A stretch of DNA of 53,141 bases from a virus (IMGVR_UViG_3300047564_007050:1-53141), one strand, 5' to 3'. Shown: positions 9,705-13,967, counted from the first letter of the stretch. Notes: generated by a model from the letters alone, not told the origin. Made by a program: numbers and translations.

Positions 9705-12605
9705 TCACTTATATTTTTGCCAGAAATATTTATCTAAGTTATAGTAATCTGTAGTTTCGTCGGAAACTTCTTCCCAAACATTTCCTTCAGAATCTACGGT
9801 ACGTTCGGGCTCATATGAATCATTTATGTATCCGAAGGGCAAAACTTCTTCCTGCATGTTTTCAATTTTTTCTTCGGCTATCTTGGCCCTAACATTTATA
9901 TTGGTAATTTCTTTAAACGGTGCTTGTGTAGTTAACCACGAAAACATAACTAGGGTCATGACCAAATCGTCATGACATCCTGGCTCGGCAGAATATGTCG
10001 TATAATTTGAGACAAATGAGGTTAGCTCAGTTATAATATTATAATCTTGAACTAATAGCTTATTAGTTTCTATAAGCTCTTTTAAATTTGCACACCCAAT
10101 TGATTTTATTTGAGTGGTCATTTTTATGCCTAATTTTGCATTTTTTCTAAACCCAGCCGAAATTCTTTGTCCACCTCGACCCATATTGGTTGTTGCAAAT
10201 ACATTTTCATATTCTAAATCTTTATGTAAAAGATCTACTACTTGAGAGCCGATGCTATTACTCTCAATTAAACAATGCGCAGAATTATATCTCAATGCAG
10301 TATTAAATATAACTGATGGAAAAACCATCGGAGATATTTTATTATTGTAGTATTTCGCAACAATTTTATACGGCACTTCAGATACATCAACAACAGTAAA
10401 TGCTGAGTAGTCTAAATTTTGACCCTCTGACGTATCAACTGAGATAACATATATATGATTTGGCTTAGGGTCTTCATACACATCTAAGCTGTCTGCTATT
10501 TTTTTAATTGGGTCAATCCAAGTTAAAGTTTTTAACTTTGTTCCTGAAATTAAAGTGTTGGTCGATCCCAAGAATTCTGTGTTAAACTCTTGGTCAAACT
10601 TTTCTTTACCTAGCTGCTTTATTTGATCTTCAGCCCATCGCTGGTCTCTGCCAGGAACAACCGACCAATGTGCCTCTATGGGTTTATATAAGTTTCTGTT
10701 ATTGATAGCATCTGTCCAGAATCTATAAAATAAATTCATTCCATTTGGAGTAGACACCATTATAACTTTAGTCGTATTACCCGAAGAAATTGTTGGATAT
10801 ACTGAAGTGATGAATTCTTCGGCGATGTTTTGTGGCACGAAGGCAAATTCATCTAAAAATATGCACTGGTGAACTAAAAAGTTATTACAATAATAACTAT
10901 GAGTATCTTCAACTTCTAATAGATCATACACATCAATTTTTTTATGGCATTCTATGTTGGTGACTTCATAAAAATAACCATCAAAATTTAATATGCTTCT
11001 ACCCAAACAATCTTTAGCTTCAATATAACCAATGTCAGTAAATAGCATGTGCTCTGAGGTGCACACAATTTCGCCAGCATCACTAGTTAATTTTATCGTG
11101 TTTTGTTTTTTGGTTTTCTTTATTCCGCAAAAGTCTTTGTATCCTTTTTCTGTGAGAACTTCGATTTTTTTAAATTCTCTTTGTGGTCTTCTGTTAAAGG
11201 TTTGCCAAGTTTTGCCTGACGCATTTTTTCTAGAACTTCTTGAGAGTATATTCCTTTCTTCCCTTTGTTCCAAGGAACACGACCCTTTGCAGCGTCGCTC
11301 ATTCTTGTTCTCGACTCTTCTGAGCGTTTCATGCCACGATGCGTCTCTGCCATTTTTCGTATCTTTTCCGGATTCTTGTTGATTTTTGCAACATGTTCTG
11401 GAGATTTCTTTAGTCCAGTTAAGCCCCTCGATATATTCTCTCGATGCCTCTGTGTCTTGGGAATTCCTCTGAGTCTTCCCAAGTTGGCCTTGGATATTTT
11501 TTCCTTTGCTGTTTGAGATAGAGTTTTTCCTAATTGAATTTCTCTTAAACAATCTCGCAAACGAGCAGATTCTCGACTGCTTACCCTGTGGTATTGTCTC
11601 GTATGAGTCATCATGGCATAGGCCCACATCATACTTGTTTTGTACTCTTCGGTTACAAATTTTGTTAAAAGTCTGTGACAAATAATGTGATGTCTTGTTG
11701 GCAAAGCAACTAAATTTTCTAAAGAATCTGAGCCGCCCATGCTTCTTGGAATCATATGATGCTTCTCTAATCTCACATTCAGATGCGAGTAGTCTTTTGT
11801 CACTATTTTCATGTATAAGTTTTTGTATTTGTTCTCTATGAACATATTGAACCTCATTACCATAATCTCGTCTTTCATATTTAGACGAATTGGCAATTAC
11901 TTTATACAATTCTTTTAGAGAAATTTCAAACTCTTCACCATCGATTTTAATCTTGGTGATGGAGTCTCCTGATACACAATTAAATGTATTACCACGAGCA
12001 GAAGATGATGCGGTGGCTGCCGCAATAACTTTGGAACCATTTTCTAATTCAATGGAACCTTTGTTCCAAATTTGAACACCTTGCTGCATCCACATAGGTA
12101 TGTGCTCATATGCAAGCCTGAGCTTTGACAATATATCTCTGGCTGTTGATGCCTTATTTGCCAATATTGCTATGTTTTGCATCGGGCCGAACAATACTGT
12201 CCAGAGAATGTATGCTATGGTTACGGTTGAGTTGTGGCTTAAAATATTGTTGGTATAGAATCTATGGTCATTTGATTCTACCGTAAGATCAAACATATTT
12301 GATGACGAGTCTAGTTTTTTCACAGACTTAATGACTTCTGCGCCATCTTTAGTCTGTATTTTTGTTAGTCCGGCAATGCAATCTTTTAGATATATTTCAT
12401 CTAAGTTAGAATCAAATAATATGTGAGTATCGGCTGCAATTAAAGATTTGCCACTATCGGTTACAACTTCCCACTTATCATACTCTATTGTTTTATGAAT
12501 GTGGGTAAGAGGTTGCCATCCAGAATCAGTTAGAATCTCGAAATCACCAGTCAATTCTATCGTATCAATAAATTTTCTTTCTACTTGTTCAGAAAGCATA
12601 AACAC
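9705..12605 (-). CDS. gp17: Terminase large subunit, C-terminal gene piece: split-intein C-half + middle extein + cis intein 2 + ATPase/nuclease extein (likely start ATG 12599)
   Basis: Extein motifs ILANKASTA, WNKGSIELENGSK, IFLDEFAF (Walker B), STPNGMN, VDTSEG, HDDLVM. Intein end motifs ILSHN/S and LVHQ/C. Confidence 0.95.
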   Translation of the reverse strand: MFMLSEQVERKFIDTIELTGDFEILTDSGWQPLTHIHKTIEYDKWEVVTDSGKSLIAADTHILFDSNLDEIYLKDCIAGLTKIQTKDGAEVIKSVKKLDSSSNMFDLTVESNDHRFYTNNILSHNSTVTIAYILWTVLFGPMQNIAILANKASTARDILSKLRLAYEHIPMWMQQGVQIWNKGSIELENGSKVIAAATASSSARGNTFNCVSGDSITKIKIDGEEFEISLKELYKVIANSSKYERRDYGNEVQYVHREQIQKLIHENSDKRLLASECEIREASYDSKKHGRLRFFRKFSCFANKTSHYLSQTFNKICNRRVQNKYDVGLCHDDSYETIPQGKQSRICSFARLFKRNSIRKNSISNSKGKNIQGQLGKTQRNSQDTEASREYIEGLNWTKEISRTCCKNQQESGKDTKNGRDASWHETLRRVENKNERRCKGSCSLEQREERNILSRSSRKNASGKTWQTFNRRPQREFKKIEVLTEKGYKDFCGIKKTKKQNTIKLTSDAGEIVCTSEHMLFTDIGYIEAKDCLGRSILNFDGYFYEVTNIECHKKIDVYDLLEVEDTHSYYCNNFLVHQCIFLDEFAFVPQNIAEEFITSVYPTISSGNTTKVIMVSTPNGMNLFYRFWTDAINNRNLYKPIEAHWSVVPGRDQRWAEDQIKQLGKEKFDQEFNTEFLGSTNTLISGTKLKTLTWIDPIKKIADSLDVYEDPKPNHIYVISVDTSEGQNLDYSAFTVVDVSEVPYKIVAKYYNNKISPMVFPSVIFNTALRYNSAHCLIESNSIGSQVVDLLHKDLEYENVFATTNMGRGGQRISAGFRKNAKLGIKMTTQIKSIGCANLKELIETNKLLVQDYNIITELTSFVSNYTTYSAEPGCHDDLVMTLVMFSWLTTQAPFKEITNINVRAKIAEEKIENMQEEVLPFGYINDSYEPERTVDSEGNVWEEVSDETTDYYNLDKYFWQKYK
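11120..11845 (-). CDS. HNH homing endonuclease with NUMOD3-like repeats, nested in the +1 frame inside intein 2
   Basis: EKHHMIPRSMGGSDSLENLVALPTRHHIICHRLL (HNH); repeats GKTLSQTAKEKISKA, GMKRSEESRTRMS, PWNKGK, GKPLTEDHKENL. GAGGT SD 5 nt before ATG 11845; the ORF track extends it to 11896. Confidence 0.92.
   Translation of the reverse strand: MFIENKYKNLYMKIVTKDYSHLNVRLEKHHMIPRSMGGSDSLENLVALPTRHHIICHRLLTKFVTEEYKTSMMWAYAMMTHTRQYHRVSSRESARLRDCLREIQLGKTLSQTAKEKISKANLGRLRGIPKTQRHRENISRGLTGLKKSPEHVAKINKNPEKIRKMAETHRGMKRSEESRTRMSDAAKGRVPWNKGKKGIYSQEVLEKMRQAKLGKPLTEDHKENLKKSKFSQKKDTKTFAE
11878..11884 (-). promoter_or_regulatory. Possible internal late promoter CTAAATA for the nested HNH gene
   Basis: Same variant as upstream of gp20 (6171-6177); about 33 nt before the HNH ATG. 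Confidence 0.45.
12231..12599 (-). mobile_element. Split intein 1, C-terminal half (about 123 aa)
   Basis: EILTDSGWQP, block B AADTHILF, blocks F/G MFDLTVESNDHRFYTNNILSHN followed by Ser+1. It has no N-terminal Cys block and has its own ATG. Confidence 0.92.
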
Positions 12606-13618
12606 TCATCTATAACTTTTTTTGGATTTTGTTTGTATTCAGATTCCCAAATTATTAAATAATCATATCCATTATCCATCGCAAACTTTTGTTTGATTAA
12701 ATCAATATTCCATTTATCTTTAGCCGACATATTTAATCTGGCGTGAAAATAGTTGGCATCATATTTTGATGGATTGCAATGCCAGTAATCACCATGATAT
12801 TCAATTATCTTATTTTTACACATCATGTCATATATCCAACTAGAGCCAACTATCGATTGTTGAGTTTTTAAATCGAAATGTTTAGCTAGTATATCTGAAA
12901 GTTCTCTTTCAGCTTTAGAGATGCATATGTCAGGATTCATTTTTTTCTGATTGATTAAAGTTTTTTCTTCTGGACTTTTTGCATCTAACGTGGCTAACCA
13001 CTTTTCTTGTCTAGCTTTCCAGATTTCAGTTCCCTTTTCTTGACCAAATTTTTTGACACATTTTTCAAGAGAAAAGGTTGACTGGCGTTTAGACAGCTCT
13101 TTTTGTGCATCTTCGTGAGAAAATCCACGCTTAATATAAAATTCCGTCGTGGTGTTTGTGTTGTGCGACTCCTTACGCTTTTTTGATATTCTCTCATGAA
13201 TTTTTGCATCTTTACCGTGAATAAATTTTTCTGAAAATGGTGAATATTTTCCTCCATGCTGATACGCTGGATTCTTATCACCTTTAATTCTTTCAGATTG
13301 CTCTTTTAGGTAAGATTCACTTCTTATTGCAGAATTTGGAAATTTTTCTTTGTACTCATCAATAGTGCAGTGCATCCGCGTGATATGAGATGTCAAGTCA
13401 TTCGATTTCATTTCACAAAGCTCACACTTAACCGCATGGATTAAATTTTTATTTTTTTCGAGTTTGGCAACTCTCATTCTTTCAAGTTGTGCTTGATATA
13501 GTTGCTCTGTTCGTTTTTTCCTACATTCATCAGAGCAGCAAGCGCTTTTCGTGCTCTTCACAAACTGCTTTGCACAAACTAAGCAATTCTTCAAATTTTG
13601 AATCTTTGCAGATTTCAT
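12581..13618 (-). CDS. Free-standing Vsr-like (PD-(D/E)XK) homing endonuclease between the split-intein halves
   Basis: N-terminal Zn fingers CLVC...CCSDEC and CELC...H...H; C-terminal SKAERE...YD...IIEYHGDYWHCNP...YDYLIIWESEY. AGGA SD. Confidence 0.9.
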   Translation of the reverse strand: MKSAKIQNLKNCLVCAKQFVKSTKSACCSDECRKKRTEQLYQAQLERMRVAKLEKNKNLIHAVKCELCEMKSNDLTSHITRMHCTIDEYKEKFPNSAIRSESYLKEQSERIKGDKNPAYQHGGKYSPFSEKFIHGKDAKIHERISKKRKESHNTNTTTEFYIKRGFSHEDAQKELSKRQSTFSLEKCVKKFGQEKGTEIWKARQEKWLATLDAKSPEEKTLINQKKMNPDICISKAERELSDILAKHFDLKTQQSIVGSSWIYDMMCKNKIIEYHGDYWHCNPSKYDANYFHARLNMSAKDKWNIDLIKQKFAMDNGYDYLIIWESEYKQNPKKVIDECLCFLNK

Positions 13619-13967
13619 AAAGTTTTCCTATTTCTAAAGTTATAATATAAGTTTTTTTGTATCTTATCACAACTTTAGTATTTATGTCAACACATTTTCC
13701 AACCTGGCGCGGAAGTTTCGCTATGGTAAATCTATGATCAATATACGACTTCAATAACTCTTTTTGAAAATCATACAAATCAAATGGCACCAAACCTTTA
13801 TCGACATGAACAATTTTCATGTACTTTTGAATGAAGTAGAGTGGATCTTGAGTGCATCTAATTCTCTCTTCTATCTGCTCTCTGGTAAAAACGTACTCAA
13901 CACCAGGAGCCTTTAAAGTAGGATTGCCTTTGTATATTCTTATTTGATTTGTTGGTATTGCATTCAT
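13530..13967 (-). CDS. gp17: Terminase large subunit, N-terminal gene piece (91-aa extein + split-intein N-half)
   Basis: YKGNPTLK, CTQDPLYFIQKY, GLVPFDLYDFQ, LPRQVGK (Walker A first half), then CVDINTKV. Confidence 0.95.
   Translation of the reverse strand: MNAIPTNQIRIYKGNPTLKAPGVEYVFTREQIEERIRCTQDPLYFIQKYMKIVHVDKGLVPFDLYDFQKELLKSYIDHRFTIAKLPRQVGKCVDINTKVVIRYKKTYIITLEIGKLYEICKDSKFEELLSLCKAVCEEHEKRLLL
13533..13694 (-). mobile_element. Split intein 1, short N-terminal half (about 30-aa core, 54 aa to stop)
   Basis: Block A CVDINTKVVIR...IGKLY immediately after GK. The frame then closes with TGA TGA ATG TAG. Confidence 0.9.
13679..13685 (-). promoter_or_regulatory. Possible internal late promoter ATAAATA for the Vsr-like endonuclease and the downstream terminase half
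   Basis: Lies within intein codons I-N-T, about 60 nt upstream of ATG 13618. Confidence 0.45.

Follow-up and report, generated by a model that had tools for sequence, protein, structure and literature searches.

A T4-type phage terminase gene carrying a split intein and a cis intein overprinted by a homing endonuclease gene in another frame

Introduction

The viral DNA IMGVR_UViG_3300047564_007050:1-53141, a stretch of 53,141 nucleotides that we refer to as the window, carries on its minus strand (13967-9705) a T4-type terminase large subunit (TerL) gene that is interrupted by two inteins. Each intein houses a homing endonuclease gene (HEG) that lies +1 to the TerL frame. At the P-loop (site 1) the TerL frame is full of stops throughout a Vsr-like HEG (HEG1), and intein 1 is split. 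At the Walker B motif (site 2) the TerL frame is free of stops throughout an HNH-NUMOD3 HEG (HEG2), and intein 2 is one contiguous open reading frame (ORF). We propose that this terminase was colonised at two sites, that it now has a split intein at site 1 and an overprinted cis intein at site 2, and that the split form was most likely derived from a stop-free one. We assign this account as a whole a probability of about 0.7. We document the anatomy of the gene, the selection that keeps the host frame open, the purifying selection on the HNH gene and the occurrence of all of these states among relatives of the two inteins.

Results

Anatomy of the interrupted terminase gene

All features described here are on the minus strand. 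The N-extein (13695..13967; 91 amino acids, aa) ends in the P-loop as ...PRQVGK and matches the PHROG terminase large subunit family (E 1.1e-19). The middle extein (11979..12230; 84 aa) agrees with extein 2 of all relatives, and the C-extein (9705..10865; 386 aa plus stop) begins with the Walker B sequence CIFLDEFAF and contains Pfam Terminase_6N and Terminase_6C. The TerL start at 13967 and the start of the second TerL ORF at 12605 have a frame offset of 0, and the ORFs of HEG1 (13618) and HEG2 (11896) are each +1 relative to that frame. A first-pass annotation, made from the sequence alone, had placed both terminase pieces in one frame and both endonucleases at +1 and had summed the exteins to 91+84+386 = 561 aa. 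The computed offsets and lengths bear this out, and the anatomy given there was correct at every point that we checked. We infer that formation of the mature 561-aa TerL would need one trans-splice and one cis-splice.

Intein 1 is encoded in two pieces. IntN1 (13530..13694) comprises 54 codons plus a TGA stop; in the first ORF ...PRQVGK is followed by CVDINTKVVIRYKKTYIITLEIGKLYEIC and then by a 25-codon tail. Residues 1 to ~29 (CVDIN...KLYEIC; L-Y at 25-26) represent the strands and helix of HINT block A, and the 25 further codons are read across the start of HEG1 up to the TGA at 13532-13530. HEG1 (12581..13618) encodes a putative 345-aa Vsr-like homing endonuclease of probable restriction-endonuclease fold. 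Its ATG (13618) lies within the L-Y-E codons of IntN1, giving an overlap of 89 nt, and its stop (12583-12581) lies 19 nt into the IntC1 ORF. IntC1 (12231..12599) has 123 aa from the ATG at 12599 (an in-frame GTG is present at 12605), contains blocks B (ADTH), F and G, and ends in ...ILSHN followed by Ser+1. The marks of a class 1 intein are thus present (Cys1, ADTH, and SHN followed by S). By phmmer, IntC1 aligned with gp41-1 intein residues 21-128 at E 3.7e-5 and with the engineered CatC 6dsl_B at E 0.024, and its match with VidaL was weak (E 0.69). As the alignment with gp41-1 begins only at residue 21, the N piece carries just the first ~20-30 residues of the fold. Judged by its sequence, intein 1 is a split HINT intein with a short IntN of ~29 aa and an IntC of 123 aa. 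The TerL frame contains 42 stops across HEG1 relative to 38.1 expected by permutation, and this match indicates that stops are not avoided in HEG1.

The assignment of HEG1 draws on both homologs and structure. There are 246 homologs, some of which are named very-short-patch-repair endonuclease by their source and have DUF559/MTES_1575/ROS_MUCR Pfam marks; the Pfam matches of HEG1 itself fall below cut-off (DUF559, 17.1 bits vs 20.6). A structure model (pLDDT 87.1) gave Vsr 1vsr (E 0.012, prob 0.99), 1cw0 and I-Bth0305I 3r3p (prob 1.00, TM-target 0.75) as the top Foldseek rows, with no row at E<=0.001. No sequence relative of HEG1 was found among solved structures at E<=10. I-Bth0305I is an enzyme of the type labelled 'EDxHD'.

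Intein 2 (10866..11978) is a contiguous 371-aa sequence located between ...GNTFN and CIFLDEFAF. It begins with Cys1 (CVSGDS) and closes with ...FLVHQ, Cys+1 being the next residue. L-Y occupies residues 24-25 and block B (TSEH) residues 307-310, and the class 1 marks are again present (Cys1, TSEH, and VHQ followed by C). HEG2 (11120..11857), an HNH-NUMOD3 homing endonuclease gene, is located within it. The ORF is open from 11896, the likely start is an ATG at 11857 or 11845 with GAGG upstream, and the stop (TAA, 11122-11120) lies ~16 codons into the structured C-part of intein 2. The product scores 22.8 bits for Pfam HNH, where the cut-off is 21.4, and 32.1 bits for NUMOD3 against a cut-off of 20.4, and it matches PHROG 655, homing endonuclease (E 4.2e-24).

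Intein 2 was modelled with AlphaFold from 17 aligned sequences; the pLDDT is 82-97 at residues 1-29 and 270-371 and below 50 at residues 30-252 and 255-267. The confident parts form a complete HINT fold whose best match is VidaL 6vgv (Z 20.3, rmsd 1.5 Å, 133 residues aligned), followed by NrdJ-1 (Z 20.1) and gp41-1 (Z 18.8). Residues 30-267 are thus predicted to be a low-confidence linker that is the TerL-frame reading of HEG2.

The window contains 12 copies of TATAAATA on the gene (minus) strand and one on the plus strand, a sequence that we take to be the T4 late promoter consensus. One-mismatch versions of it are present ~70 nt upstream of HEG1, within IntN1 codons 4-7 (CATAAATA), and at 11885, ~30-40 nt upstream of the HEG2 start (TCTAAATA).

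The overprint at site 2 is conserved and under selection

Both reading frames are open across HEG2, with no TerL-frame stop over the 258-codon HNH ORF. On average 24.9 TerL-frame stops would be expected under synonymous resampling and 20.7 under codon shuffling (17-25 overall), and no stop-free sequence was obtained in 20000 trials by either method. In the same relative frame, 22 other long ORFs of the window stay open for at most 60 codons.

The same arrangement is present in relatives. A protein search with the intein 2 region returned 21 homologs, 18 of which, with 29-94% identity, cover 99-100% of the query, linker included. A scan of IMG/VR with an alignment of intein C-parts retained 80 of 85 relatives (a scan with the single intein 2 protein gave 31 pattern matches, none of which was confirmed by tblastn). 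Both flanking exteins could be placed at 14 of these loci. Eleven of the 14 contain an insert of 1020-1149 nt with no TerL-frame stop, and the others are a mini-intein (L008, 432 nt), a split form (L017) and an empty site (L037). A metagenome scan gave 17 loci, 12 of them measurable: nine overprinted, one mini (L092), one split (L095) and one empty, with several of the overprinted loci being the same contigs as in IMG/VR. In both scans the insert of the overprinted loci measures 1020-1149 nt, lacks TerL-frame stops and contains a +1 ORF of 234-274 aa.

With duplicates dropped there are 15 distinct sequences from independent assemblies, namely the window and 14 loci. All 15 have an intact HNH ORF and no TerL-frame stop, where synonymous within-gene permutation predicts 11.0-20.5 stops and gave no stop-free sequence in 5000 trials for any of them. 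The motif E-x-HH-I-I-P...N...H...H and the NUMOD3 motifs are kept in 15 of 15 HNH ORFs. In all 105 pairs the HNH frame shows greater amino-acid identity than the TerL frame (means of 52% vs 29%; the pairs are not independent), and in the 18 pairs with more than 60% nucleotide identity the differences are distributed over the three HNH codon positions as 895/645/1673. This excess of identity and the clustering of changes in third positions establish that the HNH frame is under purifying selection and that the linker is a passenger. The overprint is therefore real and selected, with the host frame held open under selection.

The +1 geometry allows a simple route to an open host frame. A TerL-frame stop always arises from an HEG codon NNT that is followed by AA, AG or GA, and NNT and NNC are always synonymous; thus, an open TerL frame costs the HEG protein nothing. 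In the 15 overprinted HNH genes, pyrimidine-ending codons that precede AA, AG or GA end in C 250 times and in T never, as compared to 188 C and 789 T elsewhere. In the overprinted site-1 HEG of locus L148, described below, the corresponding counts before AA, AG or GA are 16 C and 0 T, as compared to 14 C and 42 T in the split HEG1 of the window.

Among cultured phages, a nucleotide search found extein pieces only and no intein 2 (230 records, none covering >=80% of the query), and with IntC2 as the protein query the sole match was Campylobacter phage CP21, in two records (H31/H32). The CP21 match at 93348-93632 has 35% identity to the intein 2 C-part (E 3e-9) and lies where the record has no annotated feature.

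Equivalent loops in two inteins, probably colonised separately

Since block B lies downstream of the interruption in both inteins, neither is broken at the usual endonuclease slot between blocks B and F. HEG2 is inserted between intein 2 residues ~29 and ~270, and residues 21-122 of IntC1 align with residues 273-370 of intein 2 (31% identity, E 2e-9). From this alignment and the intein 2 model, the two interruptions occupy equivalent loops that follow the first helix and precede block B. The first-pass annotation had anticipated this, with breaks following an L-Y helix near residue 25-30 and away from the usual endonuclease site, and with both endonuclease 3' ends overlapping the start of IntC; the L-Y positions (25-26 and 24-25) and the overlaps (19 nt for HEG1, ~16 codons for HEG2) agree. 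It had also named non-equivalent insertion points on the HINT fold as grounds for giving up its proposal, and the alignment shows the opposite.

The two inteins were further proposed to represent two stages of fracturing. This general idea gains support from the lineage of intein 1 itself, as described below, but does not hold for inteins 1 and 2 of this gene, which are not two stages of one lineage because their HEGs are unrelated (Vsr-like and HNH-NUMOD3), their identity is only 31%, and they fall in site-specific groups. Among 44 C-part domains placed on a tree, the three from site 1 make up a clade with 100/100 support on a long branch, and six of seven rows from a third TerL site (site 3) make up one with 98/84 support; the site-2 backbone is a polytomy. 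This tree includes only domains that span HMM positions <=12 to >=95, with 14 duplicate or partial loci excluded. These sequence comparisons lead us to regard the two inteins as independent colonisations by different HEGs.

Mini, overprinted and split forms in the lineage of intein 1

A scan of IMG/VR with an IntC1 alignment retained 80 of 150 relatives, giving 81 rows with the window. Sixty rows are split with an HEG1-like match upstream and 14 are split without one, several of the latter being visible remnants of HEG deletion. The remaining rows are cis: three mini-inteins (L130, L149 and L179) and four with a +1 HEG1-like gene (L147, L148, L152 and L162). In L148, ...PRQSGK is followed by CFGINTT...KFYERF..., ~300 stop-free codons and ...SRMSELSESVERKF...ILSHN, then S. 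The HEG within it is Vsr-like, has 279 codons, begins with an ATG within the F-Y-E codons and, as in the window, ends over MSELSE; the HEG stop in both L148 and the window lies over a shared M-x-x-L-S-x-x-V-E-R-K-F. L148 has no TerL-frame stop where 15.6 are expected, and none of 5000 permutations was stop-free. L147, L148 and L152 are identical across the HEG span and are thus counted as one sequence in three assemblies. L162 is a second overprinted sequence, partial at a contig end, that differs at 43/38/74 sites by HEG codon position. A protein search with the L148 intein gave 152 matches, including three more full-coverage cis inteins: P0142 (97%), P0146 (42%) and P0148 (35%).

In the IntC1 tree the overprinted rows and L149, which is the L148 allele minus its HEG, form a clade (100/96). 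Its sister group (94/88) comprises L163 and L164, where the HEG start codon has become joined to IntC through a deletion, and the overprinted clade lies inside a clade (88/81) with 17 split rows. The cis/split character changes at least three times on this tree. The common HEG, +1 frame and junctions and the placement in the intein tree make the overprinted and split forms relatives. Overprinted and split forms that never occur as close relatives had been named in the first-pass annotation as evidence that would count against it; in fact the L148 clade is sister to split forms. The phylogenies that it called for, with states mapped, place mini, overprinted and split forms together as site-1 relatives and place the two inteins of the window in separate clades.

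Cultured Ackermannviridae phages have a HEG-free cis intein at site 1, and 309 phage records match IntC1 at ~40% identity. IntC1-like parts (27-31% of the query, 46-57% identity) also occur in PF02463 SbcCD/SMC-type ATPases (P0161-P0163, P0166, P0190 and P0199), and the site-1 lineage may also be found in the P-loop of other ATPases.

Gain and loss of HEGs and other states at sites 2 and 3

Near-identical alleles that differ by the absence of a HEG indicate that mini-inteins arise from HEG-bearing alleles. For example, L008 and L012 are ~95% identical on both flanks, and a 684-nt block that begins at TATAAATA and ends in the last NUMOD3 repeat is absent from L008. The P0016/P0009 and P0017/P0014 pairs likewise have the same TerL but different in-frame internal deletions of the HEG. 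Alternatively, L008 could be an empty target site. The L008 TerL has, in addition to its site-2 mini-intein, an unrelated 330-aa cis intein at the P-loop site (L008:3333-4322) that starts with Ala and has an in-frame LAGLIDADG-type domain.

Additional site-2 states involve GIY-YIG endonucleases. L026 has an in-frame GIY-YIG domain in the post-helix loop, L017 and L095 are split with GIY-YIG HEGs, and L020 and L021 are split without a HEG. In L095 the IntN stop lies within TATAAATA; downstream come a spacer, AAGGAG, a GIY-YIG gene that is frameshifted and the overlapping start of IntC. Every HNH-bearing site-2 intein that we found is cis, and every split one has either a GIY-YIG HEG or none. 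HEG2 residues ~115-211 share 44-62% identity with the NUMOD3 part of the HEGs in L095, L104, L114 and L131, and the site-2 HEGs thus have a common DNA-binding module.

At site 3 (QEFx followed by C, extein-3 residue 95/96) relatives are again split ~25-35 residues in. The HEGs there are Vsr-like (L037 and L092) or GIY-YIG (L096), and in P0003 and P0007 IntN is fused in frame to GIY-YIG. In L016 (3919-6083) and L019 (3910-6101) a TerL C-piece with a site-3 IntC directly follows a ~351-aa 5'-3' exonuclease/RNase H-like ORF, and no TerL N-piece is present in the 5 kb upstream; the halves of TerL may be split between separate loci in these two cases. Unrelated contigs (L053, L055-L057, L059-L064, L071, L074, L076, L077, L079 and L080) contain open frames of odd composition, hundreds of codons long, that run into blocks F/G, and these may be inteins with an out-of-frame or antisense gene in the canonical endonuclease slot.

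Genomic context

The window is a 53-kb IMG/VR fragment estimated at ~37% complete. The gene order around TerL appears to be like the gp14-gp15-gp16-gp17-gp18 order annotated in Klebsiella phage Magnus. Neither an additional copy of HEG1 or HEG2 nor a third HINT domain was found within the window. IMG/VR classes the record as a provirus, despite the T4-like genes seen, and several 2-kb bins between 18001 and 28000 have a GC content of 0.41-0.46 vs 0.32-0.37 in most of the window.

Discussion

Origin of the split intein

Under our account, a T4-like phage terminase would have been colonised at the P-loop and at Walker B by inteins of one family, whose endonuclease slot would be the loop after the first helix (about residue 30) and not the region between blocks B and F. 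At site 1, the stops throughout HEG1 would cause TerL to be made as two polypeptides, which would be joined by trans-splicing of a functional IntN of ~29 residues with the 123-residue IntC. At site 2, the stop-free frame would leave the intein as one chain with a disordered passenger loop of ~240 residues that splices in cis, a state that would be kept by the cost-free choice of NNC over NNT codons. The split forms at site 1 would have been derived from stop-free ones. This direction is favoured because dozens of stops could not be purged without a selective gradient, whereas a single stop or deletion is enough for the converse change. It follows that homologous cassettes at this position, if they share an ancestor, should trace back to a stop-free one.

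The first-pass annotation had suggested the same sequence of events, from out-of-frame invasion to an overprinted cis intein to a split intein. Its two states are indeed related in the site-1 lineage; the order in which they arose is drawn from the argument just given, and no intermediates are seen. Overall we regard the link between overprinted and split forms as plausible and as testable.

Several points weigh against our account. Splicing and the expression and activity of the HEGs are deduced from sequence, as is the direction of change. The overprinted site-1 forms for which DNA is available amount to only two distinct sequences, and in P0142, P0146 and P0148 a +1 HEG is probably present, judging from the look of the linker alone. 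The backbones of both trees have 15-16 open forks, and midpoint rooting places the overprinted clade among split forms, such that naive parsimony reads the change as split to overprinted. Among 35 distinct HEG-bearing site-1 loci the two overprinted ones have 0 stops and the 33 split ones have 20-58, which is near expectation; since none of the split loci has an intermediate count, a recent transition from overprinted to split has not been caught. The origin of the first stop-free cassette is also left unexplained. Finally, the last residue of intein 2 (codon 10866-10868) is Gln and not Asn in the clade of the window. This Gln is common to the window, L001, L002, L081 and the split L017 and L020, with Asn in the other 13 alignment rows; the change is specific to a clade and affects the cyclising residue of the splicing reaction. 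Gln does work at the terminal position of some inteins.

We also considered the same-frame N and C pieces of 19 of 22 distinct split loci as a fossil of past read-through. This was rejected as independent evidence, as indels within an intact HEG ORF would be multiples of three anyway.

The alternative that survives best, which we consider unlikely but deserving of serious attention, involves no conversion between states. Split inteins would be made in one step by invasion or homing of a stop-laden cassette, overprinted inteins would be separate and rare stop-free insertions, and their shared geometry would stem from site-specific homing and the tolerance of the HINT loop alone. The association of HEG family with state at site 2 (15 of 15 HNH-bearing inteins are cis, and split ones have GIY-YIG or none) fits this alternative, as do the bimodal stop counts without intermediates and the classic fractured layout of L095. 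Additionally, step II of the model of Dassa et al. (2009; PMC2677866) already has the invader bring both stop and start. It accounts less well for site 1, where overprinted and split forms share the HEG, the +1 offset, the ATG in the Y-E codons, the 3' overlap and kinship in the tree. A stop-free cassette is also not derivable from a stop-laden one, and an ancestor shared at this position would consequently be stop-free. Furthermore, HEG1 overlaps IntN1 by 89 nt without any spacer, as opposed to the 27-51-nt gap of the 2009 fractured genes (PMC2677866).

A second alternative is that the HEG2 segment is removed or bypassed, by a group I intron, by ribosomal bypass or by a +1 frameshift that fuses the N-part to HNH, with the consequence that a cis intein with a 240-aa loop never forms. 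Introns and translational bypass are familiar features of T4-like phages, and HEG2 lies at exactly +1. However, no Rfam intron family was detected between 9500 and 14200 at E<=1 (the sole match was to an unrelated sRNA, E 0.28), HEG2 has its own ATG with GAGG upstream, and removal at the RNA level would make a stop-free frame needless, yet the frame is strictly kept. We consider this alternative very improbable.

Least credible of all is that the open TerL frame over HEG2 is an artefact or relic, either an assembly frameshift or a decayed HNH pseudogene in a real in-frame domain: the window is indeed a single-contig metagenomic sequence in which gene callers mark the 966-aa ORF as one hypothetical protein, but the arrangement recurs with an intact HNH ORF and no stops in 15 distinct sequences from independent assemblies, with purifying selection on the HNH frame and none on the TerL-frame linker, a linker pLDDT below 50, and HNH and NUMOD3 scores above the Pfam cut-offs.

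Relation to known systems

Like the fractured genes described by Dassa et al. (2009; PMC2677866), who reported a Vsr-like HEG family and 3' overlaps, intein 1 consists of three same-strand ORFs (13967-13530, 13618-12581 and 12599-9705) with a Vsr-like HEG whose 3' overlap of 19 nt compares to 6-69 bp in 15 loci of that study. A major difference is that HEG1 starts inside IntN1 with an overlap of 89 nt, whereas a non-coding gap of 27-51 nt is present at this position in their loci. Their loci include a gp17 terminase locus from Lake Gatun, 'fractured at an unusual point', with a 122-residue IntC (123 in IntC1) that has all N-terminal motifs but N1. This locus was the sole exception to the coincidence of breaks with the endonuclease slot. 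In the accessible text, their model leads from invasion to fracture or in-frame fusion and does not include an out-of-frame read-through state (PMC2677866).

The atypically split TerL inteins AceL-TerL, GOS-TerL, Cat-TerL and VidaL form a second group for comparison, with an IntN of 25, 37 or 30 aa and an IntC of 104-115 aa (PMC11766414). Similarly, IntN1 has ~29 aa with block A only and IntC1 has 123 aa with blocks B, F and G. IntC1 aligns with CatC 6dsl_B (E 0.024) and VidaL (E 0.69), and the intein 2 model is nearest to VidaL. Unlike this class, the IntN ORF of the window has a 25-residue overprint tail. These inteins have been characterised as trans-splicing tools, and the accessible text (PMC11766414) describes neither their genomic context nor cis relatives with a HEG over the split point.

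Out-of-frame HEGs have recently been reported in other inteins. Gosselin, Arsenault and Gogarten (10.1101/2025.01.02.630785) described out-of-frame and antisense HEGs in actinophage inteins, and Phillips et al. (10.64898/2026.09.14.751524) described an out-of-frame endonuclease, a +2 ORF, in a cyanobacterial dnaX intein. The HEGs reported by this group (an endonuclease VII-like gene in frame 3, antisense LAGLIDADG or VSR-like genes, and the +2 dnaX ORF) are situated in the HEN region, and here as there the host frame is open over a HEG in another frame and the in-frame product has no recognisable structure. The group also proposes that a free-standing HEG can invade a mini-intein secondarily, terminase being a host. 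The window differs in having HNH-NUMOD3 and Vsr-like HEGs at +1, in the post-helix loop and not the B-F region, in a T4-like TerL, and in belonging to a lineage that has split relatives with the same HEG. The ShiLan element is likewise stop-free in the host frame; this insertion into the methylase of a phage hides an HNH HEG in another frame (Arsenault et al. 2025, PMC11855218). Lacking a splicing domain, ShiLan leaves its peptide in the host protein; the intein 2 passenger, by contrast, would leave with the intein.

TerL of Ackermannviridae (for instance Klebsiella phage Magnus, with an annotated intein of 159 aa, and Vibrio phage Kuja) contains a cis mini-intein that shares both the P-loop site and the lineage of intein 1. 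Unlike the window, the Ackermannviridae TerL is one coding sequence without HEG or split, which places the HEG-free state in cultured phages. Among the open-access papers searched, none reports in its main text either an HNH or Vsr-like HEG at +1 in the loop after the first helix of T4-like TerL inteins or cis-overprinted relatives of atypically split TerL inteins. The split half of the arrangement is thus already known, and the overprinted half is a variation on recently described out-of-frame HEGs.

Implications

The terminase of the window brings together three separate literatures, on fractured genes, on atypical split inteins used for protein labelling and on out-of-frame endonucleases in inteins. 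Its relatives provide one natural series at one loop of one intein family, with mini, overprinted-cis, in-frame and split forms with and without a HEG. Gene callers list such TerL genes as hypothetical proteins of 900-970 aa and overlook the nested nuclease gene. The codon rule found here is a simple means by which an overlapping +1 gene can be maintained without burdening the protein that it encodes. Matched cis and trans relatives are also available for asking what makes inteins competent for trans-splicing, and the cultured Ackermannviridae phages, with their HEG-free form, could act as a bench system.

The series also offers a concrete reason for a TerL intein to be split ~25-30 residues from its N-terminus. 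A broader idea, which we hold tentatively and at somewhat short of even odds, is that decay of cis inteins with a +1-overprinted HEG in the post-helix loop has led, as its final state, to the atypically split TerL inteins of the AceL-TerL class, with stops accumulating irreversibly once one stop or a deletion such as that of L163 is tolerated through trans-splicing. If this is true, freedom from host-frame stops would be a heritable adaptation in a class of HEG cassettes, by which free-standing nucleases are able to colonise coding DNA.

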